A DNA stretch of 9,688 nt from a virus (lineage: Duplodnaviria > Heunggongvirae > Uroviricota > Caudoviricetes): the IMG/VR virus record IMGVR_UViG_2541047758_000002, positions 1 to 9,688 of that record. One strand, 5' to 3'. The notes under the pieces were generated by a model. The model worked only from the letters and a program-made list of their open reading frames with translations. It ran no database searches and was not told the origin of the DNA. How positions within the stretch are numbered: position 1 is the first letter of the stretch; each line of letters begins with the position of its first letter. Below are positions 2,077 to 9,688 of this stretch, in pieces. Made by a program: the position numbers and the translations under genes.

Positions 2077-2680
2077 TTCGCGCCTGCTGCCGACCGGCTC
2101 ATCACCGCTTGAAGTTGCCGCCGCAAAAGCCTGTGCGGAAATTGAAAAAACGCCGGTCAGTATTCGTGAGCTGTGGAACCCGGACACCTGCCCGGCAAAT
2201 CTGCTGCCGTGGCTGGCGTGGTCATTTTCGGTCGACAGGTGGGATGATAAATGGCCGGAAGCGACCAAACGCGCTGTTATCCGCGATGCGTATTTCATTC
2301 ACTGCCATAAGGGCACTATTGGTGCGATTCGCCGTGTGGTGGAGCCGCTCGGCTATCTGATTGAGGTGAGGGAGTGGTGGCAGCTCAACGAGGAGCCGGG
2401 GACGTTCCGCATCGTTGTTGGCGTGCTTGAGCAGGGTATTACCGAGGAAATGTATCAGGAGCTGGAGCGTCTCGTTGCTGATGCAAAACCTGCAAGCCGC
2501 CATCTGACGGGACTGGCTATCAGTTTAAGTACAACCGGCAACATTTTTGCCGGTGCGGGATGCTATCACGGCGACGCCCTGACGGTTTATCCCTACACCC
2601 CGGAGGCCATTATTGTCGGAGGGGATTATTTCCCGGCCTCGGCCATTCATTTAATTGATAACCTGAGAGTAAACGCATGA
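2069..2680 (+). CDS. I: Baseplate/tail protein I (P2 gpI-like)
   Basis: 203-aa ORF whose ATG at 2069 overlaps the J stop (ATGAGTGA); synteny between J and the tail fibre gene. The start is uncertain because I recall P2 gpI as shorter, but no in-frame internal ATG lies near the expected position. Confidence 0.82.
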   Translation: MSDSRLLPTGSSPLEVAAAKACAEIEKTPVSIRELWNPDTCPANLLPWLAWSFSVDRWDDKWPEATKRAVIRDAYFIHCHKGTIGAIRRVVEPLGYLIEVREWWQLNEEPGTFRIVVGVLEQGITEEMYQELERLVADAKPASRHLTGLAISLSTTGNIFAGAGCYHGDALTVYPYTPEAIIVGGDYFPASAIHLIDNLRVNA

Positions 2681-3957
2681 CAGTGAAATACTACGCCATT
2701 CTGACTAATCAGGGCGCAGCACGGCTGGCTAACGCGACGATGCTCGGCAGTAAGCTGAATCTGACGCAAATGGCCGTTGGTGATGCGAATGGTGTCTTGC
2801 CGACACCAGACCCGGCACAGACAAAACTGATTAACCAGAAACGCATTGCACCGCTGAATCTTCTGAGTGTTGACCCGAATAACCAGAGCCAGATTATTGC
2901 GGAGCAAATCATCCCTGAGAACGAGGGCGGATTCTGGATCCGTGAGATTGGGCTTTATGATGATGAAGGCGTACTCATTGCGGTGGCGAACTGCCCGGAA
3001 ACGTACAAACCGCAGTTGCAGGAAGGCAGCGGTCGTACCCAGACTATCCGCATGATTCTGGTTGTCACGAATACCGAAGCTATCACGCTGAAAATCGACC
3101 CGTCGGTGGTACTGGCGACCCGTAAATACGTGGATGATGAAGTCCTGGAATTAAGGCTGTATGTGGATGACCAGATGAGAAACCATATTGCCGCACAGGA
3201 TCCTCATACCCAGTATGCACAGAAACATAATCCGACATTTACCGGAGAACCAAAAGCGCCGACGCCTGCTGCAGGAAATAACACCACGCGGATTGCGACC
3301 ACTGCGTTTGTTCAGGCGGTTATTACCGCTCTGATTAACGGTGCGCCTGCCACGCTGGATACACTGAAAGAAATTGCCGCAGCCATTAACAATGACCCGA
3401 AATTCAGCACCACCATTAACAATGCGCTGGCAGGTAAACAACCGCTGGACAATACGCTGACTAATTTGAGTGGAAAGGATGTAGCTGGTCTTCTCACATA
3501 CCTTGGAATAGGAGAAACGGGAAAATACGACATTCTGCCAGCATCAAGAGGAGGCACTGGAGCGTCAACTATAGCCGGAGCATTGATAAACTTTGGTCTG
3601 AGTGATTTAGTGACTGCCGGATTAGTACAGGTGGAATCTGGTACAGACTTTATTACTGCTAAGATTCCATTTCTGTCCGGTGGTAGAAAGCGATTCCTGA
3701 TGATACATGCCATCAAGGCGACAATGCCTGCAAATAATAACGGGTATAACCTTACTGTTACATTCCCAACTGCCTATGATAATGCACCGATACCAATTCT
3801 TGGCTCGACCGTAGGGTCGACTTCAACAACGGGTGGTACCACAGAGTCAATGAATATTTCATCAGTCACAAAATCGGGTTGCATCATTTCTTCAGCATGG
3901 CAAACATGGTCTGAGGGACCGGTATATCTTTTAACGATTGGAGGAGTTGCAGCATGA
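2677..3957 (+). CDS. H: Tail fibre protein (P2 gpH-like): constant N-terminal part to about 3503, variable C-terminal part 3505..3957 inside the invertible segment
   Basis: 426-aa ORF with start overlapping the I stop (ATGA). The N-terminus (MTVKYYAILTNQGAARLANA...) is the conserved fibre N-terminal domain shared by P2 H and Mu S-type fibres. The C-terminal third is AT-richer and begins at a hix/gix-like site. Confidence 0.9.
   Translation: MTVKYYAILTNQGAARLANATMLGSKLNLTQMAVGDANGVLPTPDPAQTKLINQKRIAPLNLLSVDPNNQSQIIAEQIIPENEGGFWIREIGLYDDEGVLIAVANCPETYKPQLQEGSGRTQTIRMILVVTNTEAITLKIDPSVVLATRKYVDDEVLELRLYVDDQMRNHIAAQDPHTQYAQKHNPTFTGEPKAPTPAAGNNTTRIATTAFVQAVITALINGAPATLDTLKEIAAAINNDPKFSTTINNALAGKQPLDNTLTNLSGKDVAGLLTYLGIGETGKYDILPASRGGTGASTIAGALINFGLSDLVTAGLVQVESGTDFITAKIPFLSGGRKRFLMIHAIKATMPANNNGYNLTVTFPTAYDNAPIPILGSTVGSTSTTGGTTESMNISSVTKSGCIISSAWQTWSEGPVYLLTIGGVAA
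3491..3516. repeat. Left crossover site of the invertible segment (hix/gix/cix-like 26-bp site), inside the H coding sequence
   Basis: TTCTCACATACC-TT-GGAATAGGAGAA. It matches the reverse complement of the right site (TTTTCTTAAACG-TT-GGTTTAGGAGAA) at 18 of 26 positions, 12 of 14 in the half that lies inside the segment. It has the 12-2-12 architecture of Hin-family recombination sites. Confidence 0.65.
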
Positions 3958-4340
3958 AATATTATTCACCTTCAATTAATGGATTTCCCGAACAAAAGAC
4001 TGATGACAGTATTGAGATCAGTGAAGAGGTCTGGAGAATACTTCTTAGTGAAATTTACTCAGGCCGGGAGTTATTTAACGATGGCGGCGTACCCGCTACC
4101 CGTGTGCCGCAACCTACGCAAGAACAAGTAATTGCAGCCGCAGAAAATGAGCGCCAACGATTGCTGAATTATGCTGATACCGTAATGCTCGACTGGCGTA
4201 CAGAATTGATGCTGGGTGAAATCAGCGACGCCAACAGGGCTAAATTGTCGGCGTGGCTGGCTTATAAAAATCAAGTTAAGTCGGTTGATGTGACAACTGA
4301 CCCTGAGCATGTTAACTGGCCTATTTCCCCGGAGGCGTAG
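3954..4340 (+). CDS. Tail fibre assembly chaperone (P2 gpG / Mu U / Tfa family) for the currently expressed fibre tip
   Basis: 128-aa ORF with start overlapping the H stop (ATGA). Sits immediately downstream of the fibre gene; the C-terminal region (...EHVNWPISPEA) resembles Tfa proteins. Confidence 0.8.
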   Translation: MKYYSPSINGFPEQKTDDSIEISEEVWRILLSEIYSGRELFNDGGVPATRVPQPTQEQVIAAAENERQRLLNYADTVMLDWRTELMLGEISDANRAKLSAWLAYKNQVKSVDVTTDPEHVNWPISPEA

Positions 4341-4752
4341 GCCATTCAATATCTGGCGCACCGGAAGTATCGACCAGTTCCAGTGCGTCCAGATAATCCA
4401 GCCACGAATTATATTGCGCCAGTTCCTCTCCTTTCAGACGACCAATCGCCGCTTTACCAGGCCATTGCTTACTGTTTATGTATTCGTTGACCTGATTAAT
4501 CAATTGCTGCTTTTCCAGTTCGGCTGCGGCAATTTGTTCCTCATGAGTTGGCGGTGGAATATCAATCCATGCTGGCATTCCGTCGATGACACCTCTGTAT
4601 TTTCCTTCTGGTGCTTCCTTCATAAATTCGGCGGCAACAGTGTCGTCAATTTCGATTCCATCATCGGGCCATTCGCCGGATTCCTGATAAGCGATTTTAA
4701 GCTCCACAGGGAAAAACGCATTTTTCTCGGCACTGAAAATATATTTCTGCAT
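4321..4752 (-). CDS. Alternative tail fibre assembly chaperone (Mu U'-like), partner of the silent fibre cassette
   Basis: 143-aa ORF on the - strand, starting 2 nt after the stop of the silent fibre cassette. The C-terminus (...DIEWPTPPGK) is Tfa-like. Its 3' end overlaps the + strand chaperone gene by 20 nt. Confidence 0.8.
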   Translation of the reverse strand: MQKYIFSAEKNAFFPVELKIAYQESGEWPDDGIEIDDTVAAEFMKEAPEGKYRGVIDGMPAWIDIPPPTHEEQIAAAELEKQQLINQVNEYINSKQWPGKAAIGRLKGEELAQYNSWLDYLDALELVDTSGAPDIEWPTPPGK

Positions 4753-4754
4753 TT

Positions 4755-5111
4755 CTACCGTCCTATCGAAATATAACTGAATCTGTATTGCTGTGAGATA
4801 TCACTGGTTGCCACACGCCACGCTGAATTACTGATATGTTCAAAATTTACAGACAAAACCTGCGGGGCAGGATTCGACGGGTCTGACTGAACGGCATCAG
4901 ACATAACACTGACTGAAACCATCGGCTGATTAGGGAATGGTATAGGGAAGTGTCCACTGATAAAGCGGGTCGTGTTTCCTGAAAAAGTGCCAAACTGAAC
5001 AATATATCCACCTGGTAGCCTGAACCATCCCGAACCAGAAGCGAATGCTCCCATATCAGGTATCTGATTATCTCCTGTGCCCACATCCCTTTTCGCCGCT
5101 TCTCCTAAACC
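4755..5111 (-). CDS. Silent alternative tail-fibre C-terminal cassette (Mu S'v-like); lacks its own start and would be expressed only after inversion fuses it to the constant part of H
   Basis: - strand reading frame open from the right crossover site to TAG at 4757..4755. Its first codons after the crossover core (GLGEAAK...) parallel the H codons after the left core (GIGETGK...). Frame arithmetic shows an in-frame fusion after inversion. Confidence 0.7.
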   Translation of the reverse strand, partial: GLGEAAKRDVGTGDNQIPDMGAFASGSGWFRLPGGYIVQFGTFSGNTTRFISGHFPIPFPNQPMVSVSVMSDAVQSDPSNPAPQVLSVNFEHISNSAWRVATSDISQQYRFSYISIGR

Positions 5112-5125
5112 AACGTTTAAGAAAA
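5100..5125. repeat. Right crossover site of the invertible segment (hix/gix/cix-like)
   Basis: TTCTCCTAAACC-AA-CGTTTAAGAAAA. Close to the Hin-family half-site consensus TTxTCxxAAACC with a 2-bp AA core, inverted relative to the left site (core TT on the + strand). Lies 55 bp upstream of the invertase start. Confidence 0.7.
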
Positions 5126-5180
5126 TGCAGAGGTAACAGCTAACTGGCATCATCCCCGGTTTTTATTCAGGGGGATAATC

Positions 5181-5774
5181 ATGCTTATTGGCTATGTACG
5201 CGTGTCAACAAATGACCAGAACACGGAATTGCAGCGTAACGCGCTGGAGTGTGCAGGATGTGAGCTGATTTTTGAGGATAAAATCAGCGGCACGAAGTCC
5301 GACAGGCCGGGACTGAAAAAACTGCTCAGAACATTATCAGCAGGTGACACTCTGGTGGTCTGGAAGCTGGACAGGCTGGGGCGTAGTATGCGGCATCTGG
5401 TCATTCTGGTTGAGGAACTGCGCGAACGCGGCGTTAATTTTCGCAGCCTGACGGATGCTATTGATACCAGCACGCCGATGGGGCGTTTTTTCTTTCATGT
5501 GATGGGTGCCCTGGCTGAAATGGAGCGAGAACTCATTGTCGAGCGGACACGCGCCGGACTGGAAGCGGCCAGAGCCAAAGGTCGTATTGGTGGCGGACGA
5601 CCGAAACTCACTGCGGGTGAGTGGGAGCAGGTCGGACGGTTGCTGGCTGCGGGGGAATCTCGTCAACGTGTGGCGCTGATTTTTGATATTGGTCTGTCCA
5701 CGCTCTATAAAAAATTCCCCTCATCAGCGACAAAGAATAAATTGTGTCATCCCTTAGCCAACCGGGACAAATAG
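5181..5774 (+). CDS. Site-specific serine DNA invertase (Hin/Gin/Cin/Pin family resolvase-invertase)
   Basis: 197-aa ORF; N-terminus MLIGYVRVSTNDQNTELQRNAL... carries the serine-recombinase catalytic motif (YVRVST) and the ...DRLGRS... region; C-terminal helix-turn-helix (...GLSTLYKKFP). Shine-Dalgarno GGGGGA lies 5 nt upstream. Adjacent to the invertible segment. Confidence 0.92.
   Translation: MLIGYVRVSTNDQNTELQRNALECAGCELIFEDKISGTKSDRPGLKKLLRTLSAGDTLVVWKLDRLGRSMRHLVILVEELRERGVNFRSLTDAIDTSTPMGRFFFHVMGALAEMERELIVERTRAGLEAARAKGRIGGGRPKLTAGEWEQVGRLLAAGESRQRVALIFDIGLSTLYKKFPSSATKNKLCHPLANRDK
5742..5763 (+). promoter_or_regulatory. Candidate late-promoter activator site upstream of FI, overlapping the 3' end of the invertase gene
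   Basis: TTGTGTCATCCCTTAGCCAACC about 90 nt upstream of the FI start; shares TTGTG-CAT-CC with the motif upstream of V. Confidence 0.3.
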
Positions 5775-5833: not shown

Positions 5834-7024
5834 ATGAGTGACTATCATCACGGCGTGCAGGTGCTGGAGATTAACGACGGCACCCGCGTCATTTCCACCG
5901 TATCCACTGCCATTGTTGGCATGGTCTGCACGGCCAGCGATGCGGATGCGGAAACCTTCCCCCTCAATAAACCGGTGCTGATTACCAATGTGCAGAGCGC
6001 AATTGCAAAGGCCGGTAAAAAAGGCACGCTGGCGGCATCGTTGCAGGCCATCGCCGACCAGTCAAAACCGGTCACCGTTGTCGTGCGTGTGGAAGACGGC
6101 ACCGGCGACGACGAGGAAACGAAACTCGCGCAGACCGTTTCCAATATCATCGGCACCACCGACGAAAACGGTCAGTACACCGGACTGAAAGCCCTGCTGG
6201 CGGCGGAGTCGGTAACCGGTGTTAAACCGCGTATTCTCGGCGTGCCGGGACTGGACACCAAAGAGGTGGCGGTTGCACTGGCATCAGTATGTCAGAAGCT
6301 GCGCGCTTTCGGGTATATCAGCGCATGGGGCTGTAAAACCATTTCCGAGGTGAAAGCCTACCGCCAGAATTTCAGCCAGCGTGAGCTGATGGTCATCTGG
6401 CCGGATTTCCTCGCATGGGATACGGTCACCAGTACCACCGCCACCGCGTATGCCACTGCCCGTGCACTGGGCCTGCGCGCTAAAATCGACCAGGAGCAGG
6501 GCTGGCATAAAACGCTGTCCAATGTCGGGGTGAACGGTGTTACCGGCATCAGCGCATCTGTATTCTGGGATTTGCAGGAGTCCGGCACCGATGCTGACCT
6601 GCTTAACGAGTCAGGCGTCACAACGCTGATTCGCCGTGACGGTTTCCGCTTCTGGGGTAACCGTACCTGTTCTGATGACCCGCTGTTCCTCTTTGAAAAC
6701 TACACCCGCACCGCGCAGGTGCTGGCCGATACGATGGCTGAGGCGCACATGTGGGCGGTGGACAAGCCCATCACCGCAACGCTGATTCGCGACATCGTTG
6801 ACGGCATCAATGCCAAATTCCGTGAGCTGAAAACAAACGGCTATATCGTGGATGCGACCTGCTGGTTCAGCGAAGAATCCAACGATGCGGAAACCCTTAA
6901 GGCCGGAAAACTGTATATCGACTACGACTATACCCCGGTGCCTCCTCTTGAAAACCTGACCCTGCGCCAGCGTATTACCGATAAATACCTGGCAAATCTG
7001 GTCACCTCGGTTAACAGCAATTAA
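5834..7024 (+). CDS. FI: Contractile tail sheath protein (P2 gpFI-like)
   Basis: 396-aa ORF, the same length as P2 FI; GGAG ribosome-binding site upstream; followed by the tube gene. Confidence 0.92.
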   Translation: MSDYHHGVQVLEINDGTRVISTVSTAIVGMVCTASDADAETFPLNKPVLITNVQSAIAKAGKKGTLAASLQAIADQSKPVTVVVRVEDGTGDDEETKLAQTVSNIIGTTDENGQYTGLKALLAAESVTGVKPRILGVPGLDTKEVAVALASVCQKLRAFGYISAWGCKTISEVKAYRQNFSQRELMVIWPDFLAWDTVTSTTATAYATARALGLRAKIDQEQGWHKTLSNVGVNGVTGISASVFWDLQESGTDADLLNESGVTTLIRRDGFRFWGNRTCSDDPLFLFENYTRTAQVLADTMAEAHMWAVDKPITATLIRDIVDGINAKFRELKTNGYIVDATCWFSEESNDAETLKAGKLYIDYDYTPVPPLENLTLRQRITDKYLANLVTSVNSN

Positions 7025-7036
7025 GGAGCCTGACCG

Positions 7037-7555
7037 ATGGCAATGCCGCGCAAACTCAAGTTAATGAACGTCTTTCTGAACGGCTACAGCTATCAGGGCG
7101 TTGCAAAGTCCGTCACGCTGCCAAAACTGACCCGTAAGCTCGAAAACTATCGCGGTGCGGGGATGAACGGCAGCGCACCGGTAGACCTCGGCCTTGATGA
7201 CGATGCGCTGTCAATGGAGTGGTCGCTCGGGGGCTTCCCGGATTCGGTTATCTGGGAGCTTTACGCCGCAACCGGTGTGGATGCCGTGCCGATTCGTTTT
7301 GCAGGCTCTTACCAGCGCGACGATACCGGCGAAACGGTGGCCGTCGAAGTGGTCATGCGTGGGCGTCAGAAAGAAGTCGACACCGGCGAGGGTAAACAGG
7401 GAGAAGATACCGAGTCGAAAATCTCCGTGGTCTGCACCTATTTCCGGCTGACGATGGACGGTAAGGGGCTGGTCGAAATTGACACCATCAACATGATTGA
7501 GAAGGTGAACGGCGTCGACCGGCTGGAGCAACACCGCCGCAATATCGGCCTGTGA
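7037..7555 (+). CDS. FII: Tail tube protein (P2 gpFII-like)
   Basis: 172-aa ORF, the same length as P2 FII; strong AGGAG ribosome-binding site at about 7024..7028; synteny after the sheath gene. Confidence 0.92.
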   Translation: MAMPRKLKLMNVFLNGYSYQGVAKSVTLPKLTRKLENYRGAGMNGSAPVDLGLDDDALSMEWSLGGFPDSVIWELYAATGVDAVPIRFAGSYQRDDTGETVAVEVVMRGRQKEVDTGEGKQGEDTESKISVVCTYFRLTMDGKGLVEIDTINMIEKVNGVDRLEQHRRNIGL

Positions 7556-7562
7556 TTTTCAT

Positions 7563-7583
7563 CCGGTCAGCCAGGCTGACCGG
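7563..7583 (+). other. Perfect 9-bp stem / 3-nt loop hairpin in the FII-E intergenic region
   Basis: CCGGTCAGC-cag-GCTGACCGG, 8 nt after the FII stop; followed only by TT. Confidence 0.3.
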
Positions 7584-7611
7584 TTAACCCCGATTCAGAA
7601 GTGAGAAAACC

Positions 7612-7887
7612 ATGAACAAAGAAAATGTCATTACCCTGGACAATCCGGTCAAACGTGGTGAGCAGGTTATCGAACAGGTCACGCTGATGAAACCCAATGC
7701 CGGGACGCTGCGCGGTGTCAGTCTGGCTGCGGTTGCAAACTCCGAAGTCGATGCACTGATTAAGGTGCTGCCGCGCATGACGGCACCGATGCTGACCGAG
7801 CAGGAAGTCGCCGCGCTGGAACTGCCTGACCTTGTGGCGCTGGCCGGTAAGGTGGTCGGTTTTTTGTCGCCGAACTCGGTGCAGTGA
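7612..7887 (+). CDS. E: Tail assembly chaperone E (P2 gpE-like), zero-frame product
   Basis: 91-aa ORF, the same length as P2 gpE, between the tube and tape measure genes; contains the TTTTTTG slippery site near its 3' end. Confidence 0.88.
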   Translation: MNKENVITLDNPVKRGEQVIEQVTLMKPNAGTLRGVSLAAVANSEVDALIKVLPRMTAPMLTEQEVAALELPDLVALAGKVVGFLSPNSVQ

Positions 7888-8039
7888 CGTTTCCAAAAAA
7901 TCTCTCGGTCGATGACCTGATGGCGGATGTGGCAGTGATATTTCACTGGCCGCCATCAGAACTGTATCCCATGAGCCTGACCGAACTCAACACATGGCGC
8001 GAAAAGGCGCTCCGGCGAAGCGGAAACACGAATGAGTAA
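7612..8039 (+). CDS. E: Tail assembly chaperone E+E' made by programmed -1 ribosomal frameshift at 7860..7866
   Basis: The -1 frame downstream of the slippery heptamer is open to TAA at 8037..8039 (...VTFPKNLSVDDLMADVAVIFHWPPSELYPMSLTELNTWREKALRRSGNTNE*). The fusion would be about 142 aa, matching P2 gpE+E'. Confidence 0.75.
7860..7866 (+). promoter_or_regulatory. Slippery heptamer T-TTT-TTG for the -1 frameshift producing E+E'
   Basis: Sequence ttttttg read directly; same heptamer class as used by P2 E/E' and lambda G/GT. Confidence 0.7.
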
Positions 8040-9688
8040 CAATGTAAAATTACAGGTATTGCTCAGGGCTGTTGACCAGGCATCCCGCCCGTTTAAATCC
8101 ATCCGCACAGCGAGTAAGTCGCTGTCGGGGGATATCCGGGAAACACAAAAATCACTGCGCGAGCTGAACGGTCACGCATCCCGTATTGAGGGATTTCGCA
8201 AGACCAGTGCACAGCTCGCCGTGACTGGTCATGCACTTGAAAAGGCACGGCAGGAGGCCGAAGCCCTTGCCACACAGTTTAAAAATACCGAACGACCGAC
8301 CCGTGCTCAGGCGAAAGTGCTGGAATCCGCAAAGCGTGCGGTGGAGGACTTACAGGCGAAATATAACCGCCTGACGGATTCCGTTAAACGCCAGCAGCGG
8401 GAACTGGCCGCTGTGGGAATTAATACCCGCAATCTTGCACATGATGAGCAGGGACTGAAAAAACGTATCAGTGAAACCACCGCACAACTTAACCGTCAGC
8501 GCGACGCGCTGGCGCGTGTCAGTGCGCAACAGGCAAAACTTAACGCAGTAAAACAGCGTTATCAGGCCGGAAAGGAACTGGCCGGAAATATGGCCTCAGT
8601 AGGCGCTGCCGGTGTGGGGATTGCGGCGGCGGGAACGATGGCCGGAGTTAAGTTACTGATGCCCGGTTATGAGTTTGCGCAGAAAAACTCAGAATTGCAG
8701 GCCGTGCTCGGAGTGGCAAAAGACTCCGCCGAAATGACCGCACTACGCAAGCAGGCGCGCCAGCTTGGCGACAACACCGCCGCCTCGGCGGATGATGCAG
8801 CCGGTGCGCAGATTATCATTGCGAAAGCCGGCGGGGATGTTGATGCCATTCAGGCGGCAACGCCGGTCACGCTGAATATGGCGCTGGCGAACCGTCGCAC
8901 GATGGAAGAAAACGCCGCCCTGTTGATGGGGATGAAATCCGCCTTTCAGCTTTCAAACGATAAGGTCGCTCATATCGGGGATGTTCTCTCCATGACGATG
9001 AACAAAACCGCCGCCGATTTTGACGGCATGAGCGATGCGCTGACCTATGCCGCACCTGTGGCAAAAAATGCCGGTGTCAGCATTGAAGAAACCGCCGCAA
9101 TGGTCGGGGCGCTGCATGATGCAAAAATTACCGGTTCAATGGCGGGGACGGGAAGCCGTGCCGTGTTAAGCCGTCTGCAGGCACCGACGGGAAAAGCATG
9201 GGATGCACTGAAAGAGCTTGGTGTGAAAACCTCAGACAGCAAGGGAAACACCCGGCCAATATTTACCATTCTGAAAGAAATGCAGGCCAGTTTTGAGAAA
9301 AACCGGCTCGGTACTGCCCAGCAGGCTGAATACATGAAAACTATTTTCGGGGAGGAGGCCAGCTCAGCCGCCGCCGTGCTGATGACTGCCGCCTCAACCG
9401 GAAAGCTGGACAAACTGACCGCTGCGTTTAAAGCCTCGGACGGGAAGACCGCCGAGCTGGTAAATATCATGCAGGACAACCTCGGCGGTGACTTTAAAGA
9501 GTTTCAGTCCGCTTATGAGGCGGTGGGGACTGACCTGTTTGACCAGCAGGAAGGCGCACTGCGTAATCTCACACAGACGGCCACAAAGTATGTGTTAAAA
9601 CTCGATGGCTGGATCCAGAAAAACAAATCACTGGCGTCAACCATCGGCCTCATTGCCGGTGGCGCACTGGCGCTTACTGGCATCATCG
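8032..9688 (+). CDS. T: Tail tape measure protein (P2 gpT-like), N-terminal 552 codons; continues past the window end
   Basis: ATG at 8032 inside the E' stop (AATGAGTAA). The frame stays open to the window end (MSNNVKLQVLLRAVDQASRPFK...). Coiled-coil-like, Ala/Gln-rich composition typical of tape measure proteins; synteny after E/E'. Confidence 0.9.
   Translation, partial: MSNNVKLQVLLRAVDQASRPFKSIRTASKSLSGDIRETQKSLRELNGHASRIEGFRKTSAQLAVTGHALEKARQEAEALATQFKNTERPTRAQAKVLESAKRAVEDLQAKYNRLTDSVKRQQRELAAVGINTRNLAHDEQGLKKRISETTAQLNRQRDALARVSAQQAKLNAVKQRYQAGKELAGNMASVGAAGVGIAAAGTMAGVKLLMPGYEFAQKNSELQAVLGVAKDSAEMTALRKQARQLGDNTAASADDAAGAQIIIAKAGGDVDAIQAATPVTLNMALANRRTMEENAALLMGMKSAFQLSNDKVAHIGDVLSMTMNKTAADFDGMSDALTYAAPVAKNAGVSIEETAAMVGALHDAKITGSMAGTGSRAVLSRLQAPTGKAWDALKELGVKTSDSKGNTRPIFTILKEMQASFEKNRLGTAQQAEYMKTIFGEEASSAAAVLMTAASTGKLDKLTAAFKASDGKTAELVNIMQDNLGGDFKEFQSAYEAVGTDLFDQQEGALRNLTQTATKYVLKLDGWIQKNKSLASTIGLIAGGALALTGII

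Follow-up and report, generated by a model that had tools for sequence, protein, structure and literature searches.

Genes E and E' in the tail module of a P2-like phage and the −1 ribosomal frameshift that very probably joins them

The DNA analysed here, a single stretch of 9,688 nucleotides referred to throughout as the window, holds a late tail module of the P2 type, comprising genes V, W, J, I and H, a tail-fibre assembly gene, FI, FII, E/E' and T. The genes for tail tube, chaperone and tape measure keep the conserved order FII, E, T, at the same position in the late tail operon as on the P2 map. The features at and around the chaperone locus are as follows.

5834–7024: FI, the tail sheath gene by Pfam match, from the open reading frame list.
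7037–7555, plus strand: FII (tail tube), the upstream neighbour of E, assigned by Pfam PF04985 (Phage_tube, E = 2.7e-59) and by the P2 map.
7612–7887, plus strand: gene E, the zero-frame product of the tail assembly chaperone locus, 91 aa from ATG 7612 to TGA 7885–7887, from the open reading frame list and translation.
7860–7866, plus strand: slippery heptamer T_TTT_TTG in the X_XXY_YYZ register of E, read from the sequence.
7866–8039, plus strand: E' extension in the −1 frame, 57 sense codons and TAA 8037–8039, by translation.
8032–8039, plus strand: overlap of the T start with the E' stop, 8 nt, ATGAGTAA, read from the sequence.
8032–9688, plus strand: gene T (tail tape measure), N-terminal 552 codons, open past the end of the window, by translation.

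Gene E matches the Pfam family PF10109 (Phage_TAC_7) with E = 2.6e-12 (47 bits against a cutoff of 25) and PHROG 103, annotated as 'tail protein' (E = 2.6e-45). The E' extension belongs to PF06528 (Phage_P2_GpE, E = 9.6e-22, 76.6 bits against a cutoff of 23) and to PHROG 1756 (E = 2.9e-27). No NCBIfam model matched E or E', and no solved structures of relatives of E or E+E' were found. The product of gene T is recognised by PF10145 (E = 1.1e-45) and by TIGR01760, tape_meas_TP901 (E = 3e-106), and its start codon, ATG 8032–8034, shares the reading frame of E.

The original prediction had placed a T-TTT-TTG heptamer eight codons before the E stop, and base-by-base inspection bears this out: the heptamer lies in register at 7860–7866, with its TTT (7861–7863) and TTG (7864–7866) forming codons 84 and 85 of E and the TTT standing as the eighth codon ahead of the stop. 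The zero and −1 frames are jointly open for 34 nt only (7851–7884), because the −1 frame is closed before 7851, and the heptamer falls inside this short stretch. From position 7866 the −1 frame reads VAELGAVTFPKNLSVDDLMADVAVIFHWPPSELYPMSLTELNTWREKALRRSGNTNE, and translation confirms the 57 sense codons that had been proposed, up to TAA 8037–8039. The tape-measure ATG at 8032 is likewise nested in the E' terminator as predicted, within the 8-nt ATGAGTAA, and the same is true of P2.

Pairwise alignment of window positions 7560–8100 with phage P2 (AF063097) gives 98.7% identity (534 of 541 nt), the 541 columns containing seven substitutions and no indels, and several Peduovirus phages of Yersinia and Escherichia match the same segment at approximately 99% identity. 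Of the seven substitutions from P2, three are intergenic, between FII and E, and two are synonymous. The remaining two are amino-acid changes: S29N, the single residue by which E differs from P2 gpE, and an I-to-N replacement in the TELxTW motif of E'. The window matches P2 exactly over the heptamer and for at least 35 nt to either side. Also common to both are the gene order FI-FII-E/E'-T, predicted products of 91 and 142 aa, TTTTTTG at the same codon, the E' stop and the 8-nt ATGAGTAA overlap with T, whereas fun(Z) of P2 is replaced in the window by an invertible tail-fibre cassette.

The P2 GenBank record places gpE at 19430–19705, gpE+E' as a joined CDS reaching 19857, gpT from 19850 and a 'site of -1 translational frameshift' at 19685; both E and E+E' are labelled 'essential tail protein', the latter in full as '-1 frameshift; essential tail protein'. 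When an offset of 11818 is subtracted, these fall at window positions 7612–7887 (gpE), 8039 (end of gpE+E'), 8032 (gpT) and 7867 (frameshift site). Since the P2 annotations map onto the window in this way, every element listed above is the P2 arrangement, the nested start of T included; P2 places its T start within the E' stop in just this way, and the feature is not a new one. The claim that the locus has the tail-chaperone frameshift arrangement of P2 E/E' is upheld by this near-identity, by the PF10109 and PF06528 matches and by a heptamer present in all 95 of the loci described below. We consider, with great confidence, that the element is a copy of P2 E/E+E' in a P2-like (Peduovirus) prophage or phage, and that the system is one already known. 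Christie et al. 2002 (J Bacteriol 184:6522) is the primary paper on P2 gpE and gpE+E', in the FETUD tail operon.

The sole route from the E start to the E' domain is a −1 shift within 7851–7884, where the heptamer is the only shift-prone site. It is very probable that a programmed −1 ribosomal frameshift on T_TTT_TTG joins E to E', and E' is almost certainly made only as the C-terminal end of the E+E' protein (142 aa, made up of E residues 1–85 and the 57 residues of the extension). In the mechanism proposed here, most ribosomes would read through T_TTT_TTG and terminate at TGA 7885 to give the 91-aa gpE, while a minority would slip back by one base, with the P-site tRNA-Phe and the A-site tRNA-Leu re-pairing on UUU UUU. 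The slipped ribosomes would resume at 7866 in the −1 frame and reach TAA 8037, producing a 142-aa gpE+E' that carries the E' domain. Tandem slippage with the Leu kept would leave the junction GFL/VAEL (the slash marking the join) and the tryptic peptide VVGFLVAELGAVTFPK; if only the P-site tRNA slipped and the A site were decoded in the −1 frame, the junction would be GFF/VAEL and the peptide VVGFFVAELGAVTFPK, and joining the frames at P2 base 19685 would produce GFL/FAEL and the peptide VVGFLFAELGAVTFPK. If the pair works as G/GT does in lambda, the portion common to both products would attach to the tape measure T and the E' portion would bring in the tail tube protein; a constant frequency of slippage would then yield a fixed ratio of E to E+E'.

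For P2 itself, PMC3091744 (citing Christie 2002 and Xu 2004) states that the TTTTTTG frameshift gives E of 91 aa and E+E' of 142 aa from one start. Fusion-protein experiments in P2 are reported to show the frameshift, and its frequency is put at roughly 10%, both as cited in PMC3091744 and PMC5009743. As the heptamer and its flanks of at least 35 nt are identical, frameshift behaviour like that of P2 is to be expected here. The binding roles, and a similar frequency and ratio, would extend to this copy by analogy; the further claim of the original prediction, that the frameshift sets the chaperone ratio, is carried over from work on P2 and lambda and would hold here on the same footing.

Counted alone, the heptamer is unremarkable: TTTTTTG occurs three times on both strands of the window, against 2.05 ± 1.47 in shuffles, and is not enriched. 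Because the heptamer by itself is at chance level, the case rests on its context and not on a motif count, and what lies above chance is the combination of its register, its position in the 34-nt overlap, the domain encoded in the −1 frame and its conservation in relatives. A tblastn search with the E+E' fusion matched 424 of 50,697 phage records, 401 of them over at least 80% of the query, and among the matches listed those of full length were split into two pieces, as expected if the E and E' halves occupy different frames. We aligned 13 loci from distinct Peduoviridae genera (35–80% protein identity) which, together with the window and P2, make 15. An in-register X_XXY_YYZ heptamer lies inside the overlap of the zero and −1 frames in 15/15 of these loci, from more than 10 Peduoviridae genera; it is TTTTTTG in 12 and CCCTTTC, AAATTTT and GGGAAAG in the most distant three. 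The E' motif DDLMADIAxIFHWPPSE...W is encoded in the −1 frame of all 15.

Addition of 80 IMG/VR loci, the closest matches, brought the set to 95, every one of which has an in-register heptamer (87 TTTTTTG, five TTTTTTA and three other), a figure that counts sequences and is neither a number of independent events nor a probability, since the loci share ancestry and close relatives are over-represented in the IMG/VR set. The GC-rich loci L005 and L009 also have TTTTTTG, and one Klebsiella phage has a run of seven T instead of six. In a codon-level test the site reads NNT-TTT-TT[G/A] in all of 90 distinct sequences, and the codon ahead of TTT ends in T throughout, whether it encodes G, T, L or N. 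Elsewhere in E/E' only 46% of Phe codons are TTT, 6% of Leu codons are TTG and 26% of Gly codons are GGT. As synonymous positions are fixed at the site and variable elsewhere, the constraint acts on nucleotides and not on amino acids alone. Across other Peduoviridae the heptamer stands 6 to 24 codons before the E stop (8 here), and the length of the E' linker varies.

It could be argued that E' is a separate small gene with its own start, either ATG 7920 (39 aa) or GTG 7884 (51 aa, reached by termination-reinitiation at GTGA, where it overlaps the E stop). RefSeq/PGAP annotations of E. coli genomes and several phage records do give a separate 39-aa CDS, the open reading frame list for the window contains a 51-aa GTG frame (7884–8039), and the conserved Pfam domain of E' lies downstream of ATG 7920. 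Pairing with the anti-SD is nevertheless at background for both candidates (−3.0 kcal/mol for GTG 7884 and −2.4 kcal/mol for ATG 7920, against a median of −2.4 kcal/mol), and candidate E' starts stay at background level across 81 loci. GTG 7884 is moreover not conserved, with TTA or GTA found in Kp4884-2, YpM_MHG38 and YenM. No locus has a −1-frame stop between the heptamer and the domain, although the linker ranges from 51 to 71 codons, and the synonymous-site conservation of the heptamer is something that a separate E' gene does not require. The P2 record moreover annotates a frameshift, which fusion-protein experiments in P2 are reported to show (PMC3091744, PMC5009743), and a separate E' gene is in our judgement very unlikely. 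A change of frame could also be produced before translation, by RNA polymerase slipping on the T6 run so that the mRNA gains or loses one U. The site is indeed a homopolymer of six T (the run of seven in the Klebsiella phage being longer still), and reporter or fusion assays alone cannot always tell transcriptional from ribosomal slippage. Efficient transcriptional slippage in bacteria, however, involves runs of about nine A or T (PMC5009743), compared to which six is short; the X_XXY_YYZ register with E is exact in 95/95 loci, which matters to tRNAs but not to a polymerase; and the three distant relatives carry two-block heptamers (CCCTTTC, AAATTTT and GGGAAAG) without any long homopolymer. 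We regard slippage of the polymerase as extremely improbable.

There is finally a negligible chance that nothing is recoded here at all and that a −1 frame open by chance merely coincides with a chance run of T. The TTTTTTG count in the window is close to expectation, and an open frame of 57 codons is not very rare, but coincidence is refuted by the PF06528 match in the −1 frame (E = 9.6e-22), by an arrangement kept in 95/95 loci and in hundreds of phage records, and by the synonymous constraint at the heptamer.

With regard to stimulatory elements, RNAalifold applied to 11 diverse relatives predicted 0 conserved pairs downstream of the heptamer, and no conserved upstream RNA structure was found among relatives. 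Because no conserved stimulatory RNA was found on either side, the efficiency of the shift is not predictable from the sequence. Folds of the window alone gave z = −2.3 for 7867–7960 and z = −0.27 for 7840–7930. The P2 site is itself reported to lack an RNA stimulator (PMC3091744), and our null result agrees with this. A terminator-like hairpin at 7839–7860, whose T-tail is the slippery run, was rejected as it is not conserved and the scan that yielded it gave a total of 3 against 1.7 expected. We do not count among the stimulators the SD-like UAAGGUGGU at 7848–7856, which lies 3–4 nt from the heptamer, compared to the 9–14 nt spacing known for SD sequences that stimulate −1 shifts (PMC5009743), and overlaps conserved codons; most relatives have GAGGUG or AAGGUG at this position, encoding conserved K/E-V residues. 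An Rfam scan of the whole window matched 0 families.

A separate GC-rich hairpin is present at 7562–7583, directly after the FII stop and before E, with a 9-bp stem (CCGGUCAGC/GCUGACCGG), a CAG loop and no U-tract (dG −18.8 kcal/mol, z = −3.2). Single-sequence folds place a hairpin of different sequence at the same position in 10/10 Peduoviridae loci. The hairpin may serve for attenuation or for mRNA stability, marking off the sheath and tube genes, which are abundant, from E, T, U and D, which are low-copy.

The likeness to lambda G/GT that had been proposed stands for organisation but not for sequence homology. The E/E+E' pair falls, by its organisation, within the lambda G/GT-type class (Xu et al. 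2004): as with lambda gpG and gpGT, two overlapping open reading frames lie between the major tail (tube) and tape-measure genes and an infrequent −1 frameshift close to where the first one ends connects the two. By Pfam scan E matched PF10109 only and E' PF06528 only, with no lambda-type chaperone family among the matches. The relation to lambda is thus one of organisation and presumed function, with no detectable sequence homology. The lambda heptamer is G_GGA_AAG, unlike the TTTTTTG found here, and the P2 tail, unlike that of lambda, is contractile and has a sheath. The lambda chaperones and the conserved tail-gene frameshift of long-tailed phages are reportedly the subject of Levin 1993 and of Xu, Hendrix and Duda 2004, 2013 and 2014. 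In chaperones of the lambda class neither product is found in the virion and the ratio of the two is important for assembly; the lambda G:GT ratio is about 30:1, and P2 efficiency is two to three fold above that of lambda (PMC5009743). The same source (PMC5009743, citing Xu 2014) names the tape measure as the binding partner of lambda G, and the major tail protein as that of the T part.

Closer counterparts are the Burkholderia phages KS5, KS14 and KL3 and Mannheimia phage 1152AP, in which E+E' is annotated with ribosomal slippage. Their E and E' domains are homologous, at 35–59% identity, with an in-register heptamer and the same gene order (see also PMC3091744). In the record of the Mannheimia phage, the annotated genes after E+E', which has a GGGAAAG heptamer, are those for a small membrane protein and U (1192–2057 of that locus); the usual E'-T junction is missing from this record, since no recognisable tape-measure gene follows E+E'. 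Among bacterial genes, the A_AAA_AAG site of E. coli dnaX is likewise of the homopolymer type X_XXX_XXG and yields two products in a fixed ratio (PMC5009743). In dnaX about 50% of ribosomes shift, aided by a 5' SD stimulator at 9–14 nt and a 3' stem-loop, whereas at the present site no conserved 3' structure was found and the sole SD-like element, UAAGGUGGU, lies 3–4 nt away.

The position of the T start suggests a possible link between the frameshift and the tape measure. The T ATG lies 5 nt ahead of the E' stop, and unshifted ribosomes terminate 144 nt upstream of T. In related loci the overlap of T with E' is 8 nt in 59 and 11 nt in 26, with a few at 4 nt (ATGA, in KS5, RSA1 and Aeromonas LPM4) or 14 nt (two others), and FUB61 has a 2-nt gap. 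Anti-SD pairing at the T start amounts to −3.5 kcal/mol here and to a median of −3.5 kcal/mol in 89 relatives, close to background, but this weak SD is not discriminating because the start of E itself scores alike (median −3.3 kcal/mol). Translation of T might conceivably depend largely on ribosomes that have shifted into E', although we think this rather unlikely. If it were true, the frequency of slippage would set the dose of T as well as the E:E+E' ratio, coupling the output of E+E' to that of T.

The E/E' segment is present in 1583/5426 complete E. coli genomes, mostly at 95–99% identity. Such a recoding site is textbook knowledge, its prophage type is among the commonest in E. coli, and it amounts to little as a discovery; its practical value is for annotation, where recognising the heptamer gives the correct 142-aa product. 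Pipelines including RefSeq/PGAP usually split the pair into a 'phage tail assembly protein' and a 39-aa 'GpE family phage tail protein', the stand-alone E' call starting at the internal ATG (7920–8039 in the window; 8409–8528 in the locus from E. coli IAL7250) with no joined slippage CDS. The stand-alone 39-aa call, which many phage records share, is a systematic annotation shortcut. In that same E. coli IAL7250 locus, from the closest complete genome, the tape-measure gene (8521–10272) is flagged as a pseudogene, 'missing C-terminus'. As this gene is annotated as a pseudogene, at least some copies of this prophage type are defective, and the element in the window may also reside in a defective prophage.

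Upstream of the sheath gene, the window carries an invertible tail-fibre cassette at 3491–5774, of a type already familiar from the host-range switches Mu G, P1 C and e14 P, with the following parts.

2677–3957, plus strand: H.
3954–4340, plus strand: tail-fibre assembly gene.
4321–4752, minus strand: alternative assembly gene.
4755–5153, minus strand: alternative fibre C-terminus.
5100–5125: putative crossover site (TTCTCCTAAACCAACGTTTAAGAAAA), with its putative inverted partner at about 3491–3516 inside H.
5181–5774: serine invertase gene (Resolvase and HTH_7).

A 155-aa open reading frame at 4309–4776 on the plus strand has no Pfam match, runs antisense to the minus-strand assembly gene at 4321–4752 and is most likely not a gene.
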